Shown one piece after another: positions 20,352-59,376 of a DNA stretch of 64,000 nt (position 1 is the stretch's first letter; each line of letters begins with the position of its first letter). The position numbers and the translations under genes are program-made. The DNA is from an uncultured Nitrospiraceae bacterium (GTDB taxonomy: Bacteria > Nitrospirota > Nitrospiria > Nitrospirales > UBA2166): assembly GCA_964463965.1 (NCBI GenBank), contig CAYXED010000007.1, positions 4,661 through 68,660 on the forward strand. The letters run 5' to 3'. The notes under the pieces were generated by a model that was given only the letters and a program-made list of their open reading frames with translations, made no database searches and had not been told where the DNA came from.

Positions 20352-21200
20352 ATGACTAAAACCCTTGGGATATTAGGGTACCCCATAACGCACACCCTCT
20401 CTCCAATTATGCATAATGCCGCATTTTGTGAGCTTGGTATTGATGCGCAGTATGTGCCCTTTGAGGTGAGACCTGAAAATATTGAAAGTGCTCTTACTGG
20501 ACTTATTGCACTAGGAGTGTCTGGTGTAAATGTTACCATCCCACACAAAGAATCTGTGCTTCCTTTCCTTGATGAGATTGATATAGATGCAAGGCGTATT
20601 GGCGCGGTTAATACCATTTTACTTAAGGAGGGACATTTGGTTGGGTATAATACTGACGCGCAAGGTTTTGGGAACGCTTTTGCCCAAGAAATTGCCAGGC
20701 CCCTTGCTGGGCAGCAGGTAATGCTTTGTGGAGCTGGTGGCGCTGCTCGTGCTGTCTTTATTCAACTTCTTAAGGAAAACGTTAAAGATATAATAATTCT
20801 TTCTCGTACCTTAGCGCGTGCTACAAAGATGCTTGATGACTTACTTGTCGAACATCGTGATGTGAAGACGACACTTTGCTCATTTAAAGATTTTTCAGAA
20901 AATAACTTCTCTCCTGATGTGCTGATTAATGCTACTTCAGTTGGACTTCAACCTAATGATCCGCACTTAGTTCCTATAGATTTTTTTTCTTCGAATATGG
21001 TTGTGTGTGATTTAATCTATAATCCACCTCGTACCCCACTACTCAGCATGGCTGAAGAAGCAGGATCACTTGTGATGAATGGTTTAGGTATGTTGGCTCA
21101 TCAAGGGGCACTCGCATTTAATTTGTGGACTGGAGTACAGGCTCCTATTGATGTTATGCAACGGGCACTTCTTAATGCTTTTGAATCTACTAGGCCTTAA
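20352..21200 (+). CDS. aroE: Shikimate dehydrogenase
   Basis: 282 aa with LGYPITHTLSP and GVNVTIPHKE motifs, plus the GAGGAARA NADP loop. Confidence 0.9.
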   Translation: MTKTLGILGYPITHTLSPIMHNAAFCELGIDAQYVPFEVRPENIESALTGLIALGVSGVNVTIPHKESVLPFLDEIDIDARRIGAVNTILLKEGHLVGYNTDAQGFGNAFAQEIARPLAGQQVMLCGAGGAARAVFIQLLKENVKDIIILSRTLARATKMLDDLLVEHRDVKTTLCSFKDFSENNFSPDVLINATSVGLQPNDPHLVPIDFFSSNMVVCDLIYNPPRTPLLSMAEEAGSLVMNGLGMLAHQGALAFNLWTGVQAPIDVMQRALLNAFESTRP

Positions 21201-45059: not shown

Positions 45060-45938
45060 ATGAGATTTTTCTTTCTGGCACTTAGCATATTCTTTTGTAT
45101 GACAGGTTTTTTATTGCCAAGTGGGGTGTTTTCTGAAGAATTGCTTGGGGAGGTTATTAAATTTAAACACAAAACTAAACTAACTACGGATATATTGAGA
45201 GTCAATGTAGTTGTCAACGATATAGGCTCTGAGGACCCTCGGCCGGTGGCGCTCTGGCTTTCGGATGATCCTATTTTTGAACCAGGAGATCGGTTTCTTG
45301 TTGAAGAGGTAATTAGTGATTATGAGCGTGCTCCTGGAATGATTGGGATGCCTGTTCGAACAAAATTGAAATTTTCACGCGCAGAAGAATTAGAGGGCAA
45401 GTTTGCAATTATTACTATTGGGACTGTGCGGGAAATTTTTGAGAAAGAAGGCACTGGGGTGGCTATTGTTCGAAAAATTGGACAACCCGATTGCATTTCT
45501 GATCTTTTTTTGCGTGAAGACGAACCCAATGATGATTTCGGGCAAGAAGATAATCTTGGTTCGCTCAAGCGTGATTACTGTGTTTTACTTGCAGGAACAA
45601 TGTTTTCAGATGCTTCTTCAGGACCTCTCCGTGACATTGATCGCTACCGTGTGCGTGTAAAAGAATCTTTGCGTGTTCAGGCTTTTTTAAACCATGGAGA
45701 GCAGTCTGACTTTGATTTGTCAGTTGCTATGGTTGACACTGAAGAGATTCTCGCAGTTTGTGAAAGTATCGCTTTACCAGAAGACTGTGTTTTTGAAGTT
45801 GAGGTCATTGATGAACCTGTAAACATTGAACTTATTGTTATTGCTGCCTCAGGAGTAGGTCCCTATAGTCTGACGTTAAAAGGCACCGCTCTTTTAGAAG
45901 AAGAAAGTCAGCTGCAGACATTTCAGCAGGGAAAATAG
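45060..45938 (+). CDS. Secreted hypothetical protein with C-terminal pre-peptidase (PPC)-like domain
   Basis: Signal peptide MRFFFLALSIFFCMTGFLLP. The C-half pattern DIDRYRVRVKESLRVQAFL....DFDLSV...D resembles bacterial PPC domains. The N-half is unrecognised. Confidence 0.5.
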   Translation: MRFFFLALSIFFCMTGFLLPSGVFSEELLGEVIKFKHKTKLTTDILRVNVVVNDIGSEDPRPVALWLSDDPIFEPGDRFLVEEVISDYERAPGMIGMPVRTKLKFSRAEELEGKFAIITIGTVREIFEKEGTGVAIVRKIGQPDCISDLFLREDEPNDDFGQEDNLGSLKRDYCVLLAGTMFSDASSGPLRDIDRYRVRVKESLRVQAFLNHGEQSDFDLSVAMVDTEEILAVCESIALPEDCVFEVEVIDEPVNIELIVIAASGVGPYSLTLKGTALLEEESQLQTFQQGK

Positions 45939-45999: not shown

Positions 46000-46317
46000 A
46001 TGGTATTTAATTTTAAAATTTATTTATTTTCCAATCTTCTTTTAATTTTACTTGCTATTGGGGCTAATGTAGCAAGTGCTCAAAATCTAGTAACTGGAAC
46101 TATTAAACATATAGATGGTCCGCTAATGACGGTGGAAGAGGCTAGTGGCTCTGTTGTTGAGCTAAAAGTATCTCTTTCGACAGTAGTTGAAGGCGAAGGG
46201 GTGATGGGATATGGTGATCTGACTTCAGGGCAAGTAGTTACGATTGATGTCGTCAAATCCAGGCGAGGAGATGCTTTGATAGCAAAAAAAATTAATGTTG
46301 TAAAAGCCAAAATGTAG
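46000..46317 (+). CDS. Small secreted hypothetical protein (beta-rich)
   Basis: 105 aa with signal peptide ...ANVASA|QN. The G/V-rich beta-strand pattern shows no recognisable motif. Confidence 0.5.
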   Translation: MVFNFKIYLFSNLLLILLAIGANVASAQNLVTGTIKHIDGPLMTVEEASGSVVELKVSLSTVVEGEGVMGYGDLTSGQVVTIDVVKSRRGDALIAKKINVVKAKM

Positions 46318-46639: not shown

Positions 46640-47698
46640 CTAGGATAATTTTCTACGGGTCTTGACTGCATTGGCTAGGGTATGCAGGAGTATTTCAGTT
46701 GTTTCCCAGCCAATGCATGCATCTGTAATACTTTGCCCATAGGTTGGTGGAGTTCCTTCAACAAGGTCTTGGCGGCCTTCAAGAAGGTGACTTTCAAGCA
46801 TTACTCCAAAAATTTCGCTATTACCGGAGCTTATTTGCTGTGAAACGTCTAAGCATACATCTTGTTGCTTGTCATGCTGTTTGTTGCTATTAGAGTGGCT
46901 AAAATCAATCATTACCTTCAGGGGGAGGGAGGCTTTAGTAAGCATTCCCGTCACTTCTTTAACATGACTTGCATTATAGTTTGGCTTTTTCCCACCTCGG
47001 AGGATAATGTGACAATCAGGGTTTCCTGCAGTTGAGACGATGGCAGATCTTCCCTCCTTAGTAACTGAGAGGAAATGATGAGGCACACTGGCTGCTCGAA
47101 TCGCGTCAATGGCAACCTTTACCGTTCCATCTGTGGCATTTTTAAAGCCAACTGGACAGGAGAGACCTGAGGCGAGCTCTCGGTGGACTTGCGATTCCGT
47201 AGTTCTTGCGCCAATGGCACCCCAACTCATGACATCTCCAACATACTGTGGAGTTATCATGTCGAGAAATTCTCCAGCCGTAGGAAGGCCCATTTCATTG
47301 AGGTCGAGAAGAAGATTGCGAGCAATTCTCAAGCCGTCGTTAATACGAAAACTGTTATCAAGGTAAGGGTCGTTAATTAAGCCTTTCCAGCCAATGGTTG
47401 TACGAGGTTTTTCAAAGTAAACTCGCATGACAATTTCTAGGGAATCTTTGAAGAGTTTCCTCATGTCATATAGTTTTTCTCCATATTCCCTGGCGGCTTT
47501 ATCGTCATGAATGGAGCAGGGTCCAGCAATAACTAAAATGCGGTCATCTTTGTCTTTAAGAAAATTATGAATTGTCTGCCGAGCTTCAAATGCTGTTTTA
47601 GCCGCAGTTTTTGTCAGTGGAAATTTTTCAAGTAGGGTGTTTGGGGGCAGTAATTCTTTAATTTCCTTAATGTGTATGTCGTCGGTCTGATATTCCAT
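46640..47698 (-). CDS. aroG: 3-deoxy-7-phosphoheptulonate (DAHP) synthase, class I (AroG/F/H type)
   Basis: 352 aa with VIAGPCSIHD and EKPRTTIGWKGLINDP motifs. The isozyme (feedback specificity) is not assignable. Confidence 0.9.
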   Translation of the reverse strand: MEYQTDDIHIKEIKELLPPNTLLEKFPLTKTAAKTAFEARQTIHNFLKDKDDRILVIAGPCSIHDDKAAREYGEKLYDMRKLFKDSLEIVMRVYFEKPRTTIGWKGLINDPYLDNSFRINDGLRIARNLLLDLNEMGLPTAGEFLDMITPQYVGDVMSWGAIGARTTESQVHRELASGLSCPVGFKNATDGTVKVAIDAIRAASVPHHFLSVTKEGRSAIVSTAGNPDCHIILRGGKKPNYNASHVKEVTGMLTKASLPLKVMIDFSHSNSNKQHDKQQDVCLDVSQQISSGNSEIFGVMLESHLLEGRQDLVEGTPPTYGQSITDACIGWETTEILLHTLANAVKTRRKLS

Positions 47699-47822: not shown

Positions 47823-48125
47823 ATGCCTATGATGCTCCGTCAAAAACCTGTTGTGCTGTTGCTTACCCTCATCGTAACAGTGTTTTTTCTTTCCACGCCG
47901 CTCCTTGTTACCGGGCATAATCATTTTTCAGGCCATGATCATTCGGCATCTCACGCTACTCTTGAATGTCTATGGACGTGTGCGGCGTCTTCATTTGCTG
48001 TGCAGGAAATTTTCCTTTCACCAGAAGTGTCACTCCCAGTGTTTTTTGGAGGCACGCGTTCAGAAATTTTATATTCTCGAAATCTTACTTCAATTGCCCA
48101 GCCTCGCGCACCACCGCTTATCTAG
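47823..48125 (+). CDS. Small membrane-anchored His/Cys-rich protein (hypothetical)
   Basis: 100 aa with hydrophobic anchor VVLLLTLIVTVFFLSTPLLV, then GHNHFSGHDHSASHATLECLWTC. It is the first gene of a + strand array. Overlapping alternative-frame ORFs look spurious. Confidence 0.5.
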   Translation: MPMMLRQKPVVLLLTLIVTVFFLSTPLLVTGHNHFSGHDHSASHATLECLWTCAASSFAVQEIFLSPEVSLPVFFGGTRSEILYSRNLTSIAQPRAPPLI

Positions 48126-48237
48126 ATACAGTAATTCCTAATAAAATTTTGCTGTTTTCGTGTTGTGCCTTGTCATGTTTTGTTGATGGCATGACTGCAT
48201 TTCTTTAACCCTTTGAATAAGGTGAGGTTTTAGTGAC

Positions 48238-48975
48238 ATGAAGATTTTCAGACAATTTGGAATAATAGTTTTTGCAACAATGCTAGTAGCATATGCTGTG
48301 CATATTCATTCGATGTCGAAAATGGATGCAAGTTTATCTTTTGCACAGCATGATCCAAGTACTCATGATGTTCCTGCAAGTACGGGTGGTACTACTTCAG
48401 ACAGCGACCATGATCATATTTCCGCTGCTTCAACTGTATTTAAAGGGGCAATTTTTCATATCACACAGCCTGGATTACCGACTAACAGTCAACGATTGAT
48501 TGAGTTAAATACAGTCCCCTCGGGGCCATGGGTTTTTCAAGGAAATTGGAAACTTAAACTTGGTCCACTTACTGATGGAGATCGATCGGTTGAGAAGTTT
48601 AAAGCAAATTTCTCCATGATTAGGATTGAGGAACCTAATAAACCATTGGCTTCTGCTGGGACTGACCGTAGTTGGCATGCGATGCAAATTGAGATGACTC
48701 AGGGTAGTGTGATTAATATGGGTGGCGAAAAGCTACATGTGATTGGAATGGCAACTATTGGTGGTGATGGGCACAAGCATTTTATGCCAGAACCTATTGA
48801 ACTGATTTTGTCTGGTGGAGGCATGAAGAATCCTTCCAGGCTTGATATTTGGTTTGATGTGAGTCCTATACAAGTGACAAATATGTTCTTTACTGAGGGA
48901 GATGTTTCAAGTCCTAGAAATGCACGAGAGCATTTTGGAGGGGTGATTTTTGGAACTGTTGATACTGAGAAGTAA
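48238..48975 (+). CDS. Anchored/secreted hypothetical protein with N-terminal His cluster
   Basis: 245 aa with anchor FGIIVFATMLVAYAV, then HDPSTHD...SDSDHDH. The remainder has no motif I recognise. Confidence 0.55.
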   Translation: MKIFRQFGIIVFATMLVAYAVHIHSMSKMDASLSFAQHDPSTHDVPASTGGTTSDSDHDHISAASTVFKGAIFHITQPGLPTNSQRLIELNTVPSGPWVFQGNWKLKLGPLTDGDRSVEKFKANFSMIRIEEPNKPLASAGTDRSWHAMQIEMTQGSVINMGGEKLHVIGMATIGGDGHKHFMPEPIELILSGGGMKNPSRLDIWFDVSPIQVTNMFFTEGDVSSPRNAREHFGGVIFGTVDTEK

Positions 48976-48982
48976 TAGGCAG

Positions 48983-50047
48983 GTGCTCTCTCTAAACCGA
49001 GTTTCTCTAAGCCCTTGGCAGGGGGGAATTCTGAAAAAAAATCTCCTTCTAGGAGCGCTACTGGCTATATTTTTTGCCTTGAATACCCCTGTTTTTGCTA
49101 GTTGTGGGGCCGCTAATTGTTTTCTTGTGACAGGGACTCAGGAAGGACTTTCCCCCAAAGGACAATTTATTGCAGATATTTCATTTCGCCATGTTGCTCT
49201 TGATCGGGGTCAACGAGGAACAGAAAGGATTGATCAGGTATTTACACCAAAGGTAAATTTTGAAGGGAACCTTTTGGAACCCAATCATCATCGAGAAGTT
49301 AAGACGCTGAATAATCTTGCCCAACTCGATCTTAGCTATGGTGTAACTACTGATTTAACTATTCAGCTGGCCGTTCCATTTTTTAATCAACGTGTGCATG
49401 AGCACTTTGATGGGTTAAGTACTTCGAATCCTGACGGCACGTTTTTTAGATCAGATGGGACGGATGGATTTGGAGATGTTAGGGTCATTGGAAAATATAA
49501 CCTATTAACAACAACAAAGCATCTTGTTATTGGAGGGCTTGGAGTAAAGTTACCGACAGGTGAATCTAACCTTCGGGACTCATTTGGGGCTATTAACGAG
49601 CCAACTTTGATGCCTGGAACAGGGTCTTTAGATGCTCTTGCTAGTGTTTTTTATGCGTATCAGATATTTCCTCATGAGCTGGAAGCTTTTTTTTCTGGCT
49701 CGTATCAGTTTAATTCGGAGAATAGTCGCGAGTATCTTTTTGGAAATACTACCTTGCTTAATGGGGGCATAGGATATCAAGCATTGCCGTATTTATATCT
49801 TAGTGGGCAAATAAATGCGCGTATTCAGCCACATGATCAATTTATTGGACAACATGTTGATGGAACGGGAGGAGAGTGGGTTAACTTGACTCCTGGAGTC
49901 CGTTTACAACCTAACTCCACAACTCAGTTATATGCCTTTGGGCAGATTCCCGTTTATCAGCGTGTTAATGAAAGTAATCTTGTGCCAAGTTGGGGGATTC
50001 TTTTTGGCTTTTCAAAAACCTTTGGATTGTTGTCTGGAGAATCATGA
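48983..50047 (+). CDS. Outer-membrane beta-barrel protein (MetA-pathway/transporter-like family)
   Basis: Signal peptide ...ALNTPVFA|SCGAANC. It has alternating beta-strand pattern, a DGFGDVRVIGKYNL...GVKLPTG block and a C-terminal aromatic-rich strand. The start is uncertain (TTG 48950 or GTG 48983). Confidence 0.55.
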   Translation: MLSLNRVSLSPWQGGILKKNLLLGALLAIFFALNTPVFASCGAANCFLVTGTQEGLSPKGQFIADISFRHVALDRGQRGTERIDQVFTPKVNFEGNLLEPNHHREVKTLNNLAQLDLSYGVTTDLTIQLAVPFFNQRVHEHFDGLSTSNPDGTFFRSDGTDGFGDVRVIGKYNLLTTTKHLVIGGLGVKLPTGESNLRDSFGAINEPTLMPGTGSLDALASVFYAYQIFPHELEAFFSGSYQFNSENSREYLFGNTTLLNGGIGYQALPYLYLSGQINARIQPHDQFIGQHVDGTGGEWVNLTPGVRLQPNSTTQLYAFGQIPVYQRVNESNLVPSWGILFGFSKTFGLLSGES

Positions 50048-50574
50048 TTCACTGTACCCCTTTTCTAATCCTGCGCGGCGTGTTTAGGGCTGTTTTTTTT
50101 GTAGTTATCTTTGCAGCTATGGCTACTCGTCCAGATCCACTTGATGTTGGGGAACTAGCCCCTGAATTTACTTTACCGAATATTTTGGACCAGGAAATTT
50201 CACTTGCCGAGGCTAAAGGAAAAGTAACATTGGTAATGTTTTGGGCGTCATGGTGTCATCCATGTATGAAAGAAATGCCTGATGTTCAAAGTTCGTTTGA
50301 ACAGTATAATGAAGACGGCTTCCAAGTGATTGCAGTAAATTTCGGTGAGAGTGAGTCCAAGGTAAGAGAAGTAATTAAACGTTTTAATATTACATTTCCT
50401 GTTGTTATGGATCGACGAGGAAATGTTGCAGCTGATTACCGCGTATTAGGCCTCCCATTAAGCTTTTTCGTTAATCAAAATGGCACCATTGGCGAGCGTG
50501 TTTTCGGACGTACTATGACTCAAGAAGATATACATAAGACGGTTATTCACTATCTGAGTAAGACTCACGGCTAA
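50044..50574 (+). CDS. TlpA-family periplasmic thioredoxin (third paralogue in window)
   Basis: ATG 50044 overlaps the upstream stop (ATGA). It has a TM anchor and FWASWCHPCMKEMP active site. Confidence 0.8.
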   Translation: MIHCTPFLILRGVFRAVFFVVIFAAMATRPDPLDVGELAPEFTLPNILDQEISLAEAKGKVTLVMFWASWCHPCMKEMPDVQSSFEQYNEDGFQVIAVNFGESESKVREVIKRFNITFPVVMDRRGNVAADYRVLGLPLSFFVNQNGTIGERVFGRTMTQEDIHKTVIHYLSKTHG

Positions 50575-50596
50575 AAAACTCCGTGAAGGTTTGACT

Positions 50597-51976
50597 ATGA
50601 ATTTTTGTTCAATAAAAAAACTATATTTCTTGCCTGCTATTTTTCTATGTTTTTACTTTGCTAGTTGTGGCGGAGATCTTGAACATGTTCCCAATCCTTT
50701 TGAAGAATCTGAAGGAAGCTCTGGAACTGAAAAAATTGTTGTCATAGGGGCAGGGGTTTCAGCAACAAACTCTGACGCGACTGGAGGCCTTCTTGTTCCT
50801 TTTAAACCCGTAACGCTAGATGAATATGAGCTATTTGATGGGGCTACAGCTCTCAAGTCTGAAGATCCTATAGAGATTCCTTTTGCTGGAATGCATGCAC
50901 TTGCGGTGGGTGGGTTTGTTTATACAAATAATCCTGAGCAGGGGACCCTTACTGTATTTTCTACAGCTACAGGAGCATTAGAGGGTATCGTACGTGTTGG
51001 TTCTTCTCCTGGGGCCTTGCTCTTTGACCCAAATCAACAATTTCTCTTTGTTCTGAATCAGGGTGGAATAGGCGACTCCCGGAAAGATTCAATTTCCATC
51101 GTTGATGTCAATCCAACGACTACTACATTTTTGCAATCTATTGCCAAAGTGGCAGTTGAAGATGATCCGTATGATATTACATTGAGCACACAGCGTAATC
51201 GCGCCTTTGTAAGTAATAGACGTTCTGGAACTGTTTCTGTTATTGATCTTGATTCAAGTAATCTTGATACCTTTTTGTCAGTGACCCAATCGATAGAACT
51301 TGGACCCTCTCCTGGGCAACTCGAATATTCACCAATTTCTGGGCATCTTTATGTGATCCTGAACTTTCCAACGGCTGCAGATAGTATTGCAATTCTTGAT
51401 GCAGATGCCCTTGGAAAAGCAGAGGTTTTGTCAGGAATTCCCCGAGGTATAGATTCAGATGAACTTTCTCAAGTAAGGTTCATTCGCGTGAGTAATGACG
51501 GAAGTTTTCTTTGGGTAGCTTTTTCTGATGGTATTGCTGCTATCGATGCAAGGACAAATTCTGTTCTGTCAAAACTCACTATTTCAGAATTTTTACCAAA
51601 CAGAATTATTGAAGCAAATAATGCTCTATTATTTGTTTCCGGATTAGAAGGGAGCGGGGAGGTTCTGCTAATTGATGCTTCTGTGCCATTTGCTCTACAA
51701 GAAGTTTCTAGAGTTTCACTTGGACTCAATTCTCAAGCTCAAAATTTTGTTATGAACACTGACCAAACTCGTGTATATGTGTTGAATTCATTATCCAAGG
51801 AAAAGGGGAGTGTTTCAGTCATTGATGTTGCTACACGCGAGCTCTTGGATACAATTCAGGTTGATGGTTTAGACCCACATACAATTGTTCTCGTTTCCAG
51901 TGCTGATCTTGATGTCAGAGAGGGGATGGATGATTTGGGGGACCATGGGCATGATCCCGGACATCACACGCCATAG
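50597..51976 (+). CDS. YVTN-repeat beta-propeller lipoprotein with His-rich C-terminus
   Basis: Lipobox FASC. It has repeated ~40-aa units (G.L.V......L...I.VG..P..(L/I)....(N/R)..(F/Y)V.N...(G/D).(V/I)S(V/I)(I/V)D). The C-terminal tail is DDLGDHGHDPGHHTP. Confidence 0.7.
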   Translation: MNFCSIKKLYFLPAIFLCFYFASCGGDLEHVPNPFEESEGSSGTEKIVVIGAGVSATNSDATGGLLVPFKPVTLDEYELFDGATALKSEDPIEIPFAGMHALAVGGFVYTNNPEQGTLTVFSTATGALEGIVRVGSSPGALLFDPNQQFLFVLNQGGIGDSRKDSISIVDVNPTTTTFLQSIAKVAVEDDPYDITLSTQRNRAFVSNRRSGTVSVIDLDSSNLDTFLSVTQSIELGPSPGQLEYSPISGHLYVILNFPTAADSIAILDADALGKAEVLSGIPRGIDSDELSQVRFIRVSNDGSFLWVAFSDGIAAIDARTNSVLSKLTISEFLPNRIIEANNALLFVSGLEGSGEVLLIDASVPFALQEVSRVSLGLNSQAQNFVMNTDQTRVYVLNSLSKEKGSVSVIDVATRELLDTIQVDGLDPHTIVLVSSADLDVREGMDDLGDHGHDPGHHTP

Positions 51977-52038
51977 GCGTCCATTTTCCTCAAGACTAAA
52001 CCCTATTATTTTCGGCCCTTAATCGATTATTTTTTGAC

Positions 52039-54573
52039 GTGACGCCGCGTTTATTTTTTGCGATCCTGTTTTTTTTCTCTGGGGTTGCAGCTTTAATCTA
52101 TGAAATACTCTGGTTTCGTTATTTTAACCTCCTGTTTGGAAATGTGGTATATGCAACGGCCTTAGTGCTTGGAGGGTTTTTTGCCGGTTTAGCTATTGGC
52201 AATCACTATATTGGCAAATATGTCGATCAGCGACAGTCTGTTCTTTCTTTCTATGCATTTCTCGAAATTGGTATTGCAGCTGCAGCTTTCCCTGCCCCAT
52301 TTTTACTTGATTGGTTAAAGTCTTTACCGTTTTCCTCTTCAACTACTACAGGGTTATTTACTTTAGCAATTCTTTCGGTGTGTACGATTCTCCCTTCTGC
52401 AATTCTTATGGGTGGTACTCTTCCTGCACTGGGGAGGGAAATAGCAACTAAAACAAGAGATGCTGTGGCATTTTCTGGCGGACGTCTCTACGCAATTAAC
52501 ACTTTTGGGGCAGCTATCGGAGCGTTTTTAACGGGAGCATTTTTGCCGCTATACATTGGAGTATGGAATACCTATATTCTTGCAATTTTTATTAATTGCA
52601 CAGTTGCTGTTTTGGTGTTTTTTTGGCTTCAAAAGAGCACCTCAAGTACCTTAATAAGTGCTGTGAATTCTCAGGGACTTCAGTCTCAAAATAAGCCTAA
52701 CTATTATTATTCAGATAATACGTATTCGCTTGTTTTTGTACTTTCATTTTTCTCAGGGCTTTTGACTTTAGCACTTCAAGTAATCTGGACTCGGATGTTT
52801 GCACTTGTTTTTCATAATTCAGTATTTAGTTTTACTACTATCGTCGTAACATTTTTGCTAGGTCTTGCCATTGGAACATTTTTTGCAGCAAAACTCATCA
52901 ATGAAGTTGAATGGGTGCAAAATAATCCTTGGAAGCTTGTTACCTGGACACTTTCTCTCGCAGGGTTGTTAATTAGTCTATCTGGTCCACTATTTATTCT
53001 TCTTACTGGGCTTGAACGTGAACCGCATGGGGATGTAACTGCTTGGCCATTACTTTGGGCAGCAAGTACTACTACCATTGTTACAGCACTTCCAATTATT
53101 GTAGCTGGCATGATTCTCCCTTTACTGTGGCACCTTTATGCTCCAAAACTGTTAACTGGGGGAGAAGGTTCAAATGTTGGAAGGCGTCTTGGGCGAGTAG
53201 TGGCAATAAATCTTCTTGGGTCCATTATCGGAGCATTAATGTCGGGATTTCTTCTTATTCCACTCGTTGGGTTGTGGCAAAGTTTATTTTTTATAGCACT
53301 TTCCTACGCACTGCTTTCAATTTTTGTAATATTTTGGACATCTCGAGAAGGCTTTTCTGAGGGAAATCATTTTACCTTCTCTCATCGTGTTATTTCGTGG
53401 GCTGTGGCAATTTTTCTACTAACTGGAGCCTTTCTTATCCCTAAATCCCTTGGTTCACTACAGCTATTACGTGATGGTGAAAAACTTGCTTACCATAAAG
53501 AGGGAAAGAGCGCATCTGTGGCGGTAGTGAAACAAAAAAATAATCATTTAAAACTCAAGGTAAATAATACTTATGGTCTTGGTGGCTCTGCAGGGGAAAT
53601 TCAAGAAAGGCGTATGGGACACTTGCCTCTGCTATTGCATGGAGATCCTAAAGCCGTTGCTTTCATTGGAGTTGCAACAGGAATTACTCTGAGTGCAGTA
53701 AATCTTACGAACATTGGAGAAAAAATTCAACGGGTACTTGCTATCGAGTTGTTACCAGAAGTGCTTGAAGCGGCCAATATATTTAAGAAATATACAGGAG
53801 ATGTTCTTTCTGATACCCGCCTTGAAGTTCGTATTGGTGATGGTAGGCATATTTTAAGTACCTCAGACGAATATTTTGATGTAATTACTTTAGATCTTGT
53901 CACTCCTTGGCACGCGAATGCTGGATCTCTTTATACGAGAGAGTTTTATAGTGAAGTACGTAATAGGCTAATGCCTAAGGGTGTTTTCTCTCAGTGGCTT
54001 CCCTTATATCAGTTGGGACCAGAAGAGTTTAAAATTATTGCAAATACTTTTCAAAAGGTATTCCCACATGTTCAAGTATGGCGGGGGTCAAGCAATCCCC
54101 GTTATCCGATGCTTGCCTTGATTGGGTCAAATGCGAAAATTGATCTTGAAAAAAATATTTTAGGTAAAACTCATGATGTAACTTCTAAATATACCAAAGA
54201 CCCTTACTTAGTGGATTTGCCAAGTATGTTTCTCTTATATGCAGGTGATCAAGATTCCCTTCATGGATTGGTGAAAAATGCTCCAATTAATTCTGATAAT
54301 TACCCACTTATTGAGTACCTTGCACCGATCAGTCACATTTCTAAGCAGCAGTTTTTGGGAGACACCTTAATTCAATTTTTTGACGATCTTTTAGCAGAAT
54401 CTAAGACAAGAAAGAGCCAATACTATGACGCTTCGCTTGCGGGAAACTTGCTTTTACAAGCAAACTGGGAAAAACGAAAGAAAAATTATCAAAAAAGGAC
54501 AGAGTTTCTTGATCGCGCGCGTCTTTTACTCCCCAATAGTGGCTATCTCCATAAACTAGTTATTGGATTATGA
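52039..54573 (+). CDS. Polytopic membrane protein fused to spermidine-synthase-like (SpeE-fold) domain
   Basis: 844 aa with a GTG start and ~450 aa of TM helices. This is followed by a SAM/aminopropyltransferase-like region (AFIGVATGITLSA ... FDVITLDLVTPW ... LMPKGVFSQW). Confidence 0.65.
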   Translation: MTPRLFFAILFFFSGVAALIYEILWFRYFNLLFGNVVYATALVLGGFFAGLAIGNHYIGKYVDQRQSVLSFYAFLEIGIAAAAFPAPFLLDWLKSLPFSSSTTTGLFTLAILSVCTILPSAILMGGTLPALGREIATKTRDAVAFSGGRLYAINTFGAAIGAFLTGAFLPLYIGVWNTYILAIFINCTVAVLVFFWLQKSTSSTLISAVNSQGLQSQNKPNYYYSDNTYSLVFVLSFFSGLLTLALQVIWTRMFALVFHNSVFSFTTIVVTFLLGLAIGTFFAAKLINEVEWVQNNPWKLVTWTLSLAGLLISLSGPLFILLTGLEREPHGDVTAWPLLWAASTTTIVTALPIIVAGMILPLLWHLYAPKLLTGGEGSNVGRRLGRVVAINLLGSIIGALMSGFLLIPLVGLWQSLFFIALSYALLSIFVIFWTSREGFSEGNHFTFSHRVISWAVAIFLLTGAFLIPKSLGSLQLLRDGEKLAYHKEGKSASVAVVKQKNNHLKLKVNNTYGLGGSAGEIQERRMGHLPLLLHGDPKAVAFIGVATGITLSAVNLTNIGEKIQRVLAIELLPEVLEAANIFKKYTGDVLSDTRLEVRIGDGRHILSTSDEYFDVITLDLVTPWHANAGSLYTREFYSEVRNRLMPKGVFSQWLPLYQLGPEEFKIIANTFQKVFPHVQVWRGSSNPRYPMLALIGSNAKIDLEKNILGKTHDVTSKYTKDPYLVDLPSMFLLYAGDQDSLHGLVKNAPINSDNYPLIEYLAPISHISKQQFLGDTLIQFFDDLLAESKTRKSQYYDASLAGNLLLQANWEKRKKNYQKRTEFLDRARLLLPNSGYLHKLVIGL

Positions 54574-54636
54574 ATATTTACGCGTAATATTTGTTAGAAT
54601 ACTTGCTTAGTTCCGACTGAAAGGAAAAGAGTAGAT

Positions 54637-55068
54637 TTGAAGAAAACTGCTACTTTTGTTGTCAGTATTTTTCTTGCTACGGCTGTTTTTTTCTCTGGTT
54701 GCATGGCGTCTTATGAAACTAGAGAAATGCTTGTTACTGCTTACTCATCAGATCCTTATAGTACCAATTGGAAACGACACCCAGTCTTTTTTTGGAGAAC
54801 AATTATTGCAAGTGGTCCCAATGCAGGTAAACCGAAAAAAGTAGGTATCACCTCTAGTGGTGTAAAAGCTAGGGTAGGGACAATTGCTGCTGACACAAAA
54901 TACTATCCCTATGGAACTATTATGGTAATTCCTGGCTATGGAAAAGGTGTTGTTGAAGATATCGGAGGAGCGATTAAAGGCCCTAATAGGCTAGATGTAT
55001 ATTTTTCTACTAAAAAAAAAGCACTGAAATGGGGGAAGCAGACGTTAAAAGTTAAGATTAAAAAATAG
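54637..55068 (+). CDS. 3D-domain lipoprotein (MltA-type 3D fold)
   Basis: 143 aa with a TTG start and lipobox FFSGC. The 3D-domain pattern is VGTIAADTKYYPYGTIMVIPGYGKGVVEDIGGAIKGPNRLDVYF. Confidence 0.7.
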   Translation: MKKTATFVVSIFLATAVFFSGCMASYETREMLVTAYSSDPYSTNWKRHPVFFWRTIIASGPNAGKPKKVGITSSGVKARVGTIAADTKYYPYGTIMVIPGYGKGVVEDIGGAIKGPNRLDVYFSTKKKALKWGKQTLKVKIKK

Positions 55069-55120: not shown

Positions 55121-57166
55121 GTGCCGAAATATACGACTCAAGACATTCGAAATATTTCACTTCTCGGACAAGGCGCTGCGGGAAAGACTACTTTGATCGA
55201 AGCGCTTTTACATCAAACTGGAGCAATATCTGTTCCCGGCATCATTGAAAAGAAGAATACTGTATGCGATTTTGACCCTGAGGAGAAGGAGCATCAGCAT
55301 TCTTTAAACTCTGCACTTGTCAGCTGTGATCATGCTGGACATCATATTAATCTGATTGATACTCCTGGCATGATTGAGTTTTCTGGCCATGCGTTAGCCT
55401 CTCTTGCGGCTGTCGAGACAGCAGCAGTTGTTGTTACGGCACAACATGGAGTCGATGTAATTGCACGGCGAATTATGGAACGTGCTTCAGAAAGAAAACT
55501 ATGTCGGCTTATTATTGTTAATAAGATTGATCTATTGGAAACAAATTTAGAAGAGGTGGTAAGTCAAATTCAAGAATCATTTGGAAAAGAATGTTTGCCT
55601 ATTAATCTCCCTAGTAAGGGAGGTACAGATGTTGTTGATGTATTTACTAATGCTGAGGGAGATGTTGATTTTGGCTCTGTTTCGGATGCGCATACTGCAA
55701 TCGTAGAACAAGTAGTCGAAATGGATGAGGATCTTATGGCTGTATATCTTGATAAGGGAGAAGTGAGCCCTGAGCAGTTGCATGTACCTTTTACAAATGC
55801 TTTGAAGGAAGGCCATCTTGTCCCAATTTGCTTTGTTTCTGGGAGACATGGCACAGGTGTTCCAGAGCTACTTGAAGTTTTTTCTACTATGATGCCAAAT
55901 CCAATTGAAGGGAATGCACAAGAGTTTTTGCGACAACTTGACGATGGCATGGAGCCTTTTGAAATTTCACCAGATCCTTCTAAATCAATTCTTGCTCATG
56001 TCTTTAAGGTGACCGCTGATCCATTTATAGGCAAACTGGGGGTATTTCGAATTTTTCAAGGAACTGTAAAAAAAGAGACTCAACTGCATATTGCTACTGA
56101 GAAGAAAACCTTTAAAGTCGGGCATCTCTTCAAGCTTCGTGGAAAAGATCATCTGGAGATTGATGCAGGAATTCCAGGTGATATTTGTGCAGTTGCAAAA
56201 ATAGATGAAATTAGATTCGATGCTGTTTTGAGGGAAAATATTGATGGGGGGGCTATCACTTTAAAGCCCATAGAGTTTCCTCAGCCAATGAATGGTTTTG
56301 CAATTGAAGCAAAAACGCGTGGGGATGAGCAGAAGATTGGAAAGGCATTAGTTGGGATGGAGGCTGAAGATCCCTGTTTTATAGTTGAACGCAATACATT
56401 AACAAGTGAGACTGTTATTTATGGACTTGGTGATATGCATCTTCGTGTGATTTTAACAAAAATGAAGAACAGGTATGGAGTTGAAGTTGCAACTCATCCA
56501 CCCAAAATTGCCTATAGAGAGACAATTACGGGTAACGGAGAGGGCCATCATCGTCATAAAAAACAGACAGGAGGTGCAGGTCAGTTTGGTGAAGTATTTT
56601 TACGAATTTCTCCGTTGGAGAGAGGAAATGGTTTCGAATTTGTAAATGATACTTTTGGCGGTTCAATTCCTCGGCAATTTGTTCCTGCAGTGGAGAAGGG
56701 TGTTAGACAGGTTATGGAGCATGGTGCTATTGCAGGTTACGCCCTACAAGATATTAAGGTAAGTGTATATGATGGCAAACATCATCCTGTGGATAGCAAG
56801 GAAGTAGCATTTGTGATGGCTGCTAAAAAAGCTTTTATTGATGCTATTCAAAAATCAAAACCTGTTATTCTTGAACCCATTGTACATATGGATATTATTG
56901 TTCCCGAAGGTAATATGGGTGATATTGCTGGAGATTTGTCTAGTAAGCGAGGCCGTTTACAAGGGTCTGATACTTTGCCTGGATCTATGCTTCATATCAG
57001 TGCTCAAGCACCATTGGCAGAATTAGGGCAATATCAATCTCAGTTAAAAGCTGTTACTGCAGGACAAGGCTCATACACAATGCAATTAAGTCATTATGAG
57101 GCAGTTCCTGCAAATATTCAGCAACAGATTGTTGAACAATATAAACCTAAGGCAGAAGATGATTAA
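55121..57166 (+). CDS. Elongation factor G paralogue with degenerate GTPase motifs
   Basis: 681 aa with a GTG start and five-domain EF-G architecture (...GDMHLRV..., HRHKKQTGGAGQFG, GAIAGYALQDIKVSVYDGKHHPVDS). G1 is GQGAAGKTT, G3 is DTPGM (not DTPGH), and G4 is NKID. Confidence 0.8.
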   Translation: MPKYTTQDIRNISLLGQGAAGKTTLIEALLHQTGAISVPGIIEKKNTVCDFDPEEKEHQHSLNSALVSCDHAGHHINLIDTPGMIEFSGHALASLAAVETAAVVVTAQHGVDVIARRIMERASERKLCRLIIVNKIDLLETNLEEVVSQIQESFGKECLPINLPSKGGTDVVDVFTNAEGDVDFGSVSDAHTAIVEQVVEMDEDLMAVYLDKGEVSPEQLHVPFTNALKEGHLVPICFVSGRHGTGVPELLEVFSTMMPNPIEGNAQEFLRQLDDGMEPFEISPDPSKSILAHVFKVTADPFIGKLGVFRIFQGTVKKETQLHIATEKKTFKVGHLFKLRGKDHLEIDAGIPGDICAVAKIDEIRFDAVLRENIDGGAITLKPIEFPQPMNGFAIEAKTRGDEQKIGKALVGMEAEDPCFIVERNTLTSETVIYGLGDMHLRVILTKMKNRYGVEVATHPPKIAYRETITGNGEGHHRHKKQTGGAGQFGEVFLRISPLERGNGFEFVNDTFGGSIPRQFVPAVEKGVRQVMEHGAIAGYALQDIKVSVYDGKHHPVDSKEVAFVMAAKKAFIDAIQKSKPVILEPIVHMDIIVPEGNMGDIAGDLSSKRGRLQGSDTLPGSMLHISAQAPLAELGQYQSQLKAVTAGQGSYTMQLSHYEAVPANIQQQIVEQYKPKAEDD

Positions 57167-57472: not shown

Positions 57473-57639
57473 AAGAAGAGTGATTCTTCTGAATTTATTG
57501 TAACATAGTGCTTGTAATCTCACTAAAATATTTAATAATTTCTATCAATGTCTTTAATCAAAACTAATATTTTTATGCGATTTGTTTTTTGGCTATTATT
57601 CGACAATATTCTCCCTAATTGCTAGGGTACTGGAAGCGT

Positions 57640-59376
57640 ATGAGTGACAAGCCCAAAAAAACATTTCCTGGAAATAAAAATAAAATTTCCTCTCAGGATG
57701 AAAGTACTGATGAGAATGTATTTTCTCTACTTGATGAGTGTCTAGCTTCGATTTCTGAGGACTCACCCCATCAGGAACAGTTGTATAAGATTCGCCATCA
57801 CCTTTTACAGGAAGGTGCAAAATACGACCATCAAAAAACAGAACTTAAAAAACTTGAGACGGTTGTTGAAAAACTCACTGCTCCTGCCAATCGCATTGGA
57901 ACACTTCTTGATATACATACAGACGGTCTTGTCCAAATTTTTGTAGGAGGAAGCGAGTTTTATACTAATCTTGATCCTCGCTTATCAAGCACTGAATTGA
58001 AGCGTGGTGCTCAGGTATTGATTAATGAGTCGTATGCCGTAATTAAAACCTTAGGATATGATCGAAGTGGTCCAATTGTAAAAATTGGTGATGTATTGAA
58101 GGATGGTCGTTTGCGGATTGATCAAGAACCTGGACGTCCAGGAGTTTTTTTAGGTAGAGGATCTGATTTGGAAGGATTGCATCTAAAGCCTGGTGACGAA
58201 ATTCGACTTGATCCCAGTCACAGGCTTGCAATTGAGTATGTCTCATCATCTAAATCACAGCAGCATTTGCTCGATGAGCCTCCAAGTGTGTCATGGGAAG
58301 AAATAGGTGGTCAGGAAGAAGCAATTTCATCAATTCGACGAGCAATAGAGCATCCCCTTTTACACGCGGGTATATTTTCACAATACGATTTTTCCCAACC
58401 AAAAGGCTTTCTTCTTTATGGACCACCTGGATGTGGCAAAACACTTATTGGACAGGCGACAGCAAATAGTTTGGCCCAATTATTAAAAGACCCTCCAACT
58501 GAGAACTTTGTACACGAAGGCTCTTTCACTAATGCAATTTCATCTGGGGCTTTTCTCCATATTAAAGGGCCTGAAATTTTGAATATGTGGGTAGGGGAGT
58601 CTGAGCGAATTATTCGAGGCCTTTTTCAACAAGCACGCGAACGACGAAAGGCAGGAGCTTTACCATTCCTTTTTATTGATGAAGCAGAGTCAATTCTTGG
58701 AACTCGCCGAGCTATGCGATCATATAATATTTCAAATACTCTTGTTCCAATGTTTTGTGCAGAGTTAGATGGGATTGAGTCGCTTCATGATGTTGTGGTG
58801 ATTTTGGCATCGAACAGACCTGATCTTATTGACCCTGCTATTCTTCGCCCAGGGCGAATTGATCGGAAAATTAAAGTTCGACGGCCAAGTAGAAGGGAAG
58901 CGGAAAACATTCTGAGAATTTATTTACCATCCACTCTTCCCTTTGATAAAAGACTTTTAAAAACCCTAAACAATGACTCAGATTGTGTTAGGGATACTTT
59001 GATTGATGATATTCTAGGAAAAGTTTATTCTCGCGATAAAAAATCTCGTGTTCTTTCGATACGTTTACGTAATGGGAAGCGTGAAATTCTTTACCGTGAT
59101 GATGTGATAAGTGGCGCAATTTTAGCGTCCATAGTTTGTCGAATAAAAGAGCTTGCAATTAAAAGAACGATTGTAGATTCGTCTGCTGGAATTTTGCGCG
59201 ATGATGTTTCACTTGCCGTCGAAAATGAGTATGCCGAAGGAGGAATTCTTCCCCCTGATGACTCCGCGGAAGAGTGGCTTAAACTTCTTGATCATCATCC
59301 TGATCAAGTTGTGGGAATTTCCCCGCTTCGAAACTTTGGGATGGAGCAGGAATTACTAGTCAAAAATATCGTCTAA
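57640..59376 (+). CDS. mpa: Proteasome-associated AAA ATPase Mpa/ARC
   Basis: It has an N-terminal coiled coil and a double OB region. Walker A is GPPGCGKT, Walker B is FLFIDEAES, and the second region of homology is ASNRPDLIDPAILRPGRIDRKI. The start is ATG 57640 (alternative TTG 57619). Confidence 0.85.
   Translation: MSDKPKKTFPGNKNKISSQDESTDENVFSLLDECLASISEDSPHQEQLYKIRHHLLQEGAKYDHQKTELKKLETVVEKLTAPANRIGTLLDIHTDGLVQIFVGGSEFYTNLDPRLSSTELKRGAQVLINESYAVIKTLGYDRSGPIVKIGDVLKDGRLRIDQEPGRPGVFLGRGSDLEGLHLKPGDEIRLDPSHRLAIEYVSSSKSQQHLLDEPPSVSWEEIGGQEEAISSIRRAIEHPLLHAGIFSQYDFSQPKGFLLYGPPGCGKTLIGQATANSLAQLLKDPPTENFVHEGSFTNAISSGAFLHIKGPEILNMWVGESERIIRGLFQQARERRKAGALPFLFIDEAESILGTRRAMRSYNISNTLVPMFCAELDGIESLHDVVVILASNRPDLIDPAILRPGRIDRKIKVRRPSRREAENILRIYLPSTLPFDKRLLKTLNNDSDCVRDTLIDDILGKVYSRDKKSRVLSIRLRNGKREILYRDDVISGAILASIVCRIKELAIKRTIVDSSAGILRDDVSLAVENEYAEGGILPPDDSAEEWLKLLDHHPDQVVGISPLRNFGMEQELLVKNIV

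Follow-up and report, generated by a model that had tools for sequence, protein, structure and literature searches.

The window analysed here is a 64-kb stretch of DNA from an uncultured Nitrospiraceae bacterium, in which seven consecutive plus-strand genes (g1 to g7, 47823-55068) encode envelope proteins carrying His clusters and Cys pairs. A sequence-only reading of this stretch had proposed that the seven genes form an undescribed system for metal handling in the periplasm and outer membrane. The co-directional arrangement, the short spacings and the quoted motifs behind that proposal were all reproduced from the list of open reading frames (ORFs) with translations, and the gene boundaries are the same in independent gene calls on two public contigs of identical sequence. 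From g1 to g7 the intergenic distances are 112, 7, -4, 22, 62 and 63 nucleotides (nt), followed by 52 nt to the gene for EF-G; the start of g4 overlaps the stop of g3 by 4 nt (ATGA), and the GTG start codon assigned to g3 at 48983 is uncertain, a longer TTG ORF beginning at 48950. Profile searches agree with the earlier description of g4 as a TlpA-type protein, g5 as a YVTN lipoprotein, g6 as a SpeE-fused protein and g7 as a 3D-domain lipoprotein, while g1, g2 and g3 gave no Pfam or NCBIfam match even at an E-value of 10, in line with the statement that g2 has no recognised domain. The His/Cys motifs go beyond chance, since they are kept in the orthologues of g1, g2, g3 and g5. We consider it a little better than an even chance that the locus is a leader-peptide-controlled envelope operon, in which g1 serves as a nascent-chain sensor of the CutF/CruR class and is followed by a metal-handling cargo (Table 1).

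Table 1. Genes and sequence features of the candidate leader-controlled operon and its two flanking genes (aa, amino acids).
Feature	Position	Strand or arrangement	Basis
g1, 100-aa candidate nascent-peptide metal sensor, CutF/CruR-like leader	47823-48125	+	ORF, family alignment
g1 hydrophobic segment, N-in	about aa 9-29 of g1	+	translation
g1 His cluster GHNHFSGHDHSASH	aa 31-44, 47913-47954	+	family alignment
g1 CxxxC (CLWTC), putative ligand-sensing motif	aa 49-53, 47967-47981	+	invariant in 27 relatives
g1 RAPP, putative ribosome-arrest motif, 2 codons before stop	aa 95-98, 48105-48116	+	
Hairpin with subsequent U-rich run between g1 and g2 (112-nt spacer); might act as attenuator or pause element, lead only	48172-48195	+	
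g2, 245 aa, anchored or secreted; HDPSTHD and DSDHDH	48238-48975	+	ORF, AlphaFold2 model
g3, outer-membrane barrel, divergent COG4313/PF13557 (Phenol_MetA_deg) relative	48983-50047	+	homologues' PF13557 matches
g3 Cys pair CGAANC at predicted mature N-terminus (...VFA/SCGAANC, slash marking the cleavage site)	49103-49120	+	invariant in alignment
g4, membrane-anchored TlpA/ResA-like thiol-disulfide oxidoreductase	50044-50574	+	Pfam/NCBIfam
g4 WCHPC (in WASWCHPC)	50251-50265	+	translation
g5, YVTN beta-propeller lipoprotein, lipobox FASCGG	50597-51976	+	Pfam/NCBIfam
g5 C-terminal His tail DHGHDPGHHTP	51941-51973	+	translation
g6, 844-aa fused polytopic membrane/SpeE-like protein	52039-54573	+	NF037959
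g7, 3D-domain lipoprotein, lipobox FFSGC	54637-55068	+	PF06725
aroG (DAHP_synth_1)	46640-47698	divergent from g1	neighbour of module
EF-G	55121-57166	52 nt after g7	neighbour of module

Homologues of the g3 barrel were examined in 75 genomic loci (63 of them non-redundant), in which ORFs were called and searched with the window proteins, and an iterated profile search over these loci yielded 50 distinct g1-like proteins. These proteins of about 100 aa share an N-terminal hydrophobic segment, a His-rich stretch, a CxxxC motif and an R[AGP]PP motif (present as RAPP, RGPP or RPPP), which in most members ends 1-7 aa before the stop codon. In an alignment of 27 sequences with a mean column identity of 33%, C49, C53, R95, P97 and P98 are the only invariant columns, and the majority consensus of the His/Cys region reads HxxxHx5Hx3HxSLxCxWxC. 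Every family member with a Cys motif has it in the form CxxxC, and in all 46 of the 46 members that carry both motifs CxxxC and RxPP stand 41-43 residues apart, the sequence between them varying freely. Across all frames of the window, g1 is the only ORF with R[AG]PP. The 35 clusters that make up the family are without exception from Nitrospirota and annotated as hypothetical. Its type A paralogues possess a second hydrophobic segment, while type B members have no C-terminal hydrophobic helix; a role of RxPP as a C-terminal sorting signal was rejected on account of the latter.

This combination of motifs is known from regulatory peptides that act while still on the ribosome. In the cutFOG operon of Rhodobacter capsulatus, CutF carries CxxxC 45 aa before a Pro-rich stalling motif and unmasks cutO's ribosome-binding site (PMC9973294). 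CruR of Bordetella pertussis (Bp2923, DUF2946) senses copper through a CXXC located 45 residues before a C-terminal RAPP and controls the genes downstream through Rho-dependent termination (PMC9426467). More generally, RAPP and RGPP are avoided in proteomes and enriched at the C-termini of small exported proteins that are encoded upstream of metal-homeostasis and thioredoxin genes (PMC12992588). By the published rule set, a CutF-like protein has <150 aa and carries both an export signal and a Cys/His motif, PP falls among its last 15 residues, and another gene follows downstream on the same strand within 1000 nt (PMC9973294). All of these are found in g1, with its 100 aa, an export segment judged by inspection (MPMMLRQKP followed by a 20-residue hydrophobic stretch), the His cluster and CxxxC, RAPP at aa 95-98 and g2 at 112 nt.

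Like CutF and the CutF-like proteins (PMC9973294; bioRxiv 10.1101/2025.02.05.636593), g1 is small, exported and first in its operon, where it heads candidate metal genes, and its CxxxC-to-Pro-tail spacing is 41 aa compared with about 45 aa in CutF. It differs from CutF in its tail (RAPP as opposed to a PPP-type tail), in its cargo (a barrel/TlpA/propeller module, where CutF has a multicopper oxidase with its Shine-Dalgarno (SD) sequence hidden in a stem-loop), and in belonging to a Nitrospirota-restricted family that lacks a Pfam domain. With CruR it shares a RAPP a few residues before the stop, a fixed Cys-to-RAPP spacing (41-43 aa in the g1 family, 45 in CruR), an N-in/C-out export segment and a long spacer to the next gene (112 nt, against 162 nt in CruR); moreover, AhpC_TSA-type genes have been noted in CruR-type operons (PMC9426467), and g4 is AhpC-TSA here. 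The Cys motif of CruR is CXXC and the protein matches PF11162, whereas g1 has CxxxC and no such match; and CruR controls a TonB-dependent transporter by Rho-dependent termination, whereas g1 heads the barrel/TlpA module, with no Rho utilisation (rut) site evident in the g1-g2 spacer because this spacer is U-rich and C-poor. The arrest peptides ApdA and ApdP and those of the Streptomyces lividans set (PMC10951233, PMC12992588) are likewise small membrane or secreted proteins that carry R-A-P-P close to the C-terminus, and g1, like ApdA and ApdP, is encoded upstream of putatively regulated genes; those two proteins monitor Sec/YidC activity, whereas the Cys/His motif of g1 would imply ligand sensing.

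Judged by these motifs, g1 is probably a regulatory nascent peptide of the CutF/CruR class rather than a structural protein. It would represent a new family inside the known class and outside DUF2946, since it follows the rule set, leaves PF11162 unmatched and belongs to a family without a Pfam domain. The earlier view of protein 1 as a component that itself handles metal is thus better replaced by a regulatory one (PMC9973294, PMC9426467, PMC12992588), and because g1 falls into a known leader class the system is not wholly undescribed, although its cargo is. A structural role would take the form of a stable, membrane-anchored metallochaperone, in which RxPP serves structure or interaction and takes no part in translation; the His cluster and CxxxC would make a plausible Cu/Zn site, and the second hydrophobic segment of the type A paralogues resembles small membrane proteins. 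We nevertheless regard this as decidedly unlikely, given that conservation confined to C, C, R, P and P at fixed spacing is what would be expected of a nascent-chain device, that RAPP/RGPP is strongly counter-selected in ordinary proteins (PMC12992588), and that CruR and CutF offer precedents.

Many of the 446 homologues of g3 carry PF13557, and among 20 aligned barrel sequences (about 50% identity) 13 matched it, with a best E-value of 2e-14; on these matches, the g3 family appears to be a divergent branch of PF13557/COG4313. The closest relatives, at 80% identity, come from the marine Nitrospirales metagenome-assembled genomes UBA2166, NP85 and OFTM238, which places the window itself in this group. 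Invariant in the 20 sequences are C41, C46, H103, E105 and H139-E140-H141, which correspond to the conserved motifs CGxxNC at the mature N-terminus, HHxE and HEH. A search of the PDB with the barrel profile returned nothing significant. In the solved COG4313 channel Pput2725, the segment before the first strand occludes the barrel lumen (PMC4493636); if the same holds for g3, its Cys pair would sit in the plug. The subfamily is related to Pput2725, SphA and TcpY (PMC4493636) through the PF13557 matches of its homologues and has a similar mature length, but it is set apart by the invariant CGxxNC, HHxE and HEH, by its pairing with TlpA and a leader peptide, and by the absence of linked genes for hydrophobic substrates. 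The PF13557 relationship is also the starting point for the view that the barrel is a COG4313 channel of the ordinary kind whose substrate is a hydrophobic or organosulfur compound, with TlpA reducing the compound or the channel and the His/Cys features being incidental; COG4313 channels are implicated in taking up hydrophobic molecules, not metals (trichlorophenol, sphingosine; PMC4493636). This seems to us very unlikely: none of the loci examined has catabolic genes linked to it, the barrel is preceded by leader peptides that bear Cys/His motifs, and the module occurs in metal islands.

Leader and barrel are associated well beyond the clade of the window. A leader-like ORF lies immediately 5' of the barrel in 35 of 53 loci, compared with 9 of 301 control genes from the same loci (Fisher p about 1e-26), by a crude filter that accepts a small ORF if its product has an export-like segment as well as Cys/His residues and if PP occurs among the last 15 residues. 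The true fraction is higher, because g2 intervenes in the window's clade and the filter missed a few cases. Outside Nitrospirota the small upstream proteins end in tails such as DRPPRAL, DPPPRFI and PPDPPPR, so different leader families converge on the same barrel cargo.

Among the non-redundant loci, 43 of 63 have a TlpA-like gene within 7 kb of the barrel, mostly as the next gene and often overlapping, and this pairing spans Nitrospirota, Nitrospinota, Gammaproteobacteria, Acidobacteriota and others. In distant Nitrospirota, where the barrel is about 50% identical, the typical order is g1A-g1B-barrel-propeller-(MFS/SpeE)-TlpA (MFS, major facilitator superfamily), with permutations in loci L018, L020, L022, L026, L028, L033, L056 and L072. 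Since the chromosomal surroundings are unrelated between genomes, the module is an autonomous unit that extends from the leader gene or genes to TlpA/g6. Its conserved cargo consists of the barrel and the TlpA/ResA-like reductase, joined in Nitrospirota by the His-tailed propeller lipoprotein and the MFS/SpeE fusion. Of the proposed conserved unit, the g1-like, barrel, TlpA, propeller and MFS/SpeE genes thus recur in distant Nitrospirota, while g2 and g7 are confined to the window's clade; a lack of synteny and a lack of motif conservation in orthologues, which the sequence-only reading had named as grounds for giving up its proposal, were both looked for, and neither was found.

The reductase g4 matches AhpC-TSA (E-value 6.5e-28) and Redoxin (E-value 1.3e-21) and has an N-terminal hydrophobic segment and a WCxPC motif, although it stays below the equivalog cutoffs for ResA (137 bits, cutoff 170) and TlpA (58.9 bits, cutoff 230). 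TlpA acting on ScoI/CoxB in Bradyrhizobium, and likewise ResA/CcmG, are membrane-anchored periplasmic reductases of thioredoxin fold that reduce Cys pairs, which then bind copper. The g4 protein has the same anchor, fold and WCxPC; unlike those reductases it belongs to no equivalog and has no Sco, CoxB or cytochrome c maturation genes next to it. The tight and frequent coupling of barrel and TlpA suggests, by analogy, that the client of the reductase could be the pair of Cys in the barrel or a metal site made from that pair.

The same partnership suits an account based on thiol redox state instead of metal, in which the Cys pair of g1 would report how oxidising the periplasm is, a disulfide in the emerging g1 chain releases the arrest and the operon supplies TlpA for Cys-containing envelope proteins, the barrel among them. 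The invariant residues of the g1 His/Cys region are the Cys pair and not the His, no other gene accompanies the barrel as constantly as TlpA, and RAPP peptides with paired Cys are found upstream of DsbA and thioredoxin genes (PMC12992588). We hold this account to be unlikely, as His-rich features are kept on the propeller lipoproteins and g2, HHxE and HEH are conserved in the barrel, copper genes accompany the Cys-type CutF-like proteins (PMC9973294), and the module of the Candidatus Manganitrophus plasmids lies in a heavy-metal island. On these plasmids, two leaders, barrel, propeller and TlpA are surrounded by an HMA P-type ATPase, CzcD, NikR_C, ChrB_C, HupE/UreJ and a resistance-nodulation-division (RND) pump. 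In a Nitrospinales genome, leader, barrel and TlpA are followed by a cytochrome c and a CzcCBA-like RND system. Both contexts support metal handling, and the operon probably handles a metal such as copper in marine nitrite-oxidiser-like Nitrospirota; importers and exporters are both nearby, so the context does not settle import or detoxification. The earlier proposal of metal handling is partly supported, by the conserved motifs, the synteny of the module and the Manganitrophus island, while the naming of Cu, Zn or Ni stays inferred.

The propeller lipoprotein g5 matches the YVTN repeat TIGR02276 with 47.2 bits (cutoff 27.85) as well as Lactonase; in the PDB it is closest to the YVTN surface-layer protein 1L0Q (E-value 5e-11), only YVTN-type propellers being matched. 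All 12 of 12 orthologues are lipoproteins with an HxH-type C-terminal tail, and in L018, L022, L024, L033 and L086 the gene is replaced by a different lipoprotein of about 370 aa that ends in GGHHG. A paralogue of the propeller lipoprotein is also found on a Ca. Manganitrophus plasmid (L005, 11321-14430, minus strand), as the last gene of a DUF2231 - HupE_UreJ_2 - DUF6488 operon whose DUF6488 protein has a mature part that starts with GSDHSHEP; this context, too, speaks for metal handling. The fusion protein g6 belongs to NF037959 (fused MFS/spermidine synthase; 113.3 bits, cutoff 40), has invariant GxATG, E570, D601, D619 and H625 (SpeE-like nucleotide-binding and catalytic-type residues), and has homologues between barrel or propeller and TlpA in L018, L020, L022, L033, L056 and L086. 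The last of these, a Nitrospirota contig, shows the order barrel - 366-aa lipoprotein - MFS/SpeE - TlpA and encodes a canonical SpeE (Spermine_synt_N and Spermine_synth; 20740-21047, plus strand) about 5.5 kb 3' of TlpA, so an ordinary spermidine synthase is present alongside the fused SpeE-like protein.

The second gene, g2, is a clade-specific accessory rich in His and Asp. Its D57-H58-D59-H60 is invariant in 6 sequences, and the AlphaFold2 model (predicted local distance difference test score, pLDDT, of 81) places this DHDH in a disordered linker and also shows a confidently modelled all-beta domain; neither fold nor profile searches gave a significant PDB match. The proposed check of gene neighbourhoods around this 245-aa protein shows the block to be kept in close relatives, with g2 itself limited to the window's clade: it forms 5 clusters among 5.8 billion proteins, and a full search with a hidden Markov model added only faint relatives. 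A 216-aa g2 paralogue (representative P0127; L003, 6109-6759, plus strand) lies about 3 kb upstream of aroG in relatives, and the wider g2-like family, of secreted proteins of about 180 aa, has an R..HTHHI motif that is degenerate in g2 (RSWHAMQI).

In close relatives, with g2 at about 50% identity, the seven genes are all retained, and so are aroG and EF-G. That the whole block is retained in TARA and UBA relatives, together with the common direction and short spacings, might be taken to mean that all seven genes, including the 3D-domain lipoprotein, form one seven-component system. The synteny of these relatives is uninformative, though, because the unrelated neighbours aroG and EF-G are kept as well; g7 is found in the window's clade only and is absent from all distant loci, and in L013 it stands directly after TlpA, with EF-G and without g5 or g6. 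For these reasons g7 is assigned to EF-G and not to the module, contrary to the membership claimed for it earlier, and a single seven-gene system, which we consider extremely unlikely, was rejected.

For the leader-controlled operon, the following sequence of events can be proposed. During translation and export of the g1 chain, with the ribosome at RAPP, about 44-66 residues would separate the His cluster and CxxxC from the peptidyl-transferase centre. The emerging chain would bind a ligand, for which copper or another thiophilic metal is the likeliest candidate, and this binding would alter how long the ribosome is arrested on R-A-P/P (the slash marking the point of arrest), and the duration of the arrest would set the expression of the downstream genes. 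The g3 product would provide a COG4313-like channel with the invariant Cys pair in its N-terminal segment and with HHxE and HEH, the TlpA/ResA-type reductase g4 would plausibly keep this Cys pair or a bound metal site reduced, and the His-tailed propeller lipoprotein g5 would be a candidate periplasmic metal shuttle; g2 would act as a clade-specific accessory, with g7 and EF-G as mere neighbours. More tentatively, and with a clearly less than even chance, the barrel and TlpA (in Nitrospirota with the His-tailed propeller and MFS/SpeE) may constitute an unrecognised TonB-independent route for a thiophilic metal, copper, over the outer membrane, with a reducible Cys pair in the plug of the barrel as its gate and with lineage-specific leaders as switches, R[AGP]PP in Nitrospirota and (D/V)PPPR or DRPPR in Nitrospinota, Acidobacteriota and others.

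Several results weigh against the reading of the locus as a leader-controlled operon. Alignment folding of four orthologues gave no conserved structure, folding constrained by a stalled ribosome disagreed between the window and L003, and an Rfam scan for an RNA element after g1 returned zero matches; in all, no conserved RNA device linking arrest to g2 translation and no conserved SD-masking stem-loop were found. Neither g1 nor 10 of its relatives matched PF11162 (DUF2946) at E-values up to 1-10, and none of the 35 clusters of the g1 family has a precomputed Pfam domain. The window g3 itself has no PF13557 match at E-values up to 10, the substrates reported for COG4313 channels are hydrophobic, as noted above, about one third of the barrel loci keep the Cys pair with no TlpA nearby, and nothing was found that links the SpeE-like fusion g6 to metals. 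As for the spacer itself, its hairpin has a free energy of -12.4 kcal/mol and similar ones occur in L003 and L012, not in L011 and L013; terminator-like hairpins are mildly enriched after g1-family genes (11 of 50, compared with 12 of 150 control windows). The minimum free energy fold of the window pairs the RAPP-coding CCUCGC with the SD of g2, at a z-score of -0.7 that is no better than shuffles, and scans for promoter and terminator consensus sequences stayed at background level.

Nascent-peptide metal sensors of the CutF/CruR type have been described in 2022-2025 only, mostly in Proteobacteria, and they are known to precede TonB receptors, RND pumps, PCuAC/YcnI and multicopper oxidases. 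The g1 family would extend this sensor class to Nitrospirota with a family outside Pfam, an unusually clean C, C, R, P, P signature and often two sensors in tandem, and also to a new, phylogenetically widespread cargo, the COG4313-type barrel with a Cys pair, coupled to TlpA. If that cargo moves copper, marine nitrifier-related and manganese-oxidising lineages, for which trace-metal supply matters ecologically, would have a new pathway for metal across the outer membrane, and a large orphan branch of PF13557 would gain a function.

Some further small proteins resemble leaders in part. His/Cys-rich proteins of about 110-165 aa, unlike g1, stand directly 5' of the barrel in other phyla, namely in Nitrospinaceae (L031 7413-7859; L038 7394-7855; L041, L051, L074), with the motif HC.LLGH.....CPH, and in Acidobacteriota (L068 7526-7858; L073 7385-7918). 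They end in DRPPRAL, DPPPRFI or PPDHPPRxxC and look like distinct PPPR-type leader families; none has a Pfam match. In the TARA and NP85 relatives, a second g1-like protein of 101 aa (HHKFDTDADGTHHHASDTCTW...KARAPP), without CxxxC, is encoded on the minus strand (L003 4110-4415; L012 1081-1386). Its gene heads a minus-strand cluster that continues with a 438-aa protein without annotation and then ZnuA, ZnuC and ZnuB; it may serve as RAPP leader of a system for Zn/Mn uptake and has no counterpart in the window.

Around the operon, two exported hypothetical proteins without a Pfam match are encoded on the plus strand between mfd and aroG (45060-45938 and 46000-46317). The second has a sub-threshold NCBIfam match to ExtJ (E-value 0.0018, 18.6 bits, cutoff 52.5), and both are conserved in near-identical contigs only. 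Just 3' of EF-G, a proteasome-ATPase-like AAA protein (Prot_ATP_ID_OB_N and AAA in precomputed Pfam) is encoded at 57619-59376 on the plus strand. GC skew is positive in 30 of 32 2-kb windows of the 64-kb stretch, with a cumulative skew that climbs nearly steadily, and the genes examined between 41.6 and 59.4 kb all lie on the plus strand except aroG, which together with the skew is consistent with a leading-strand segment.

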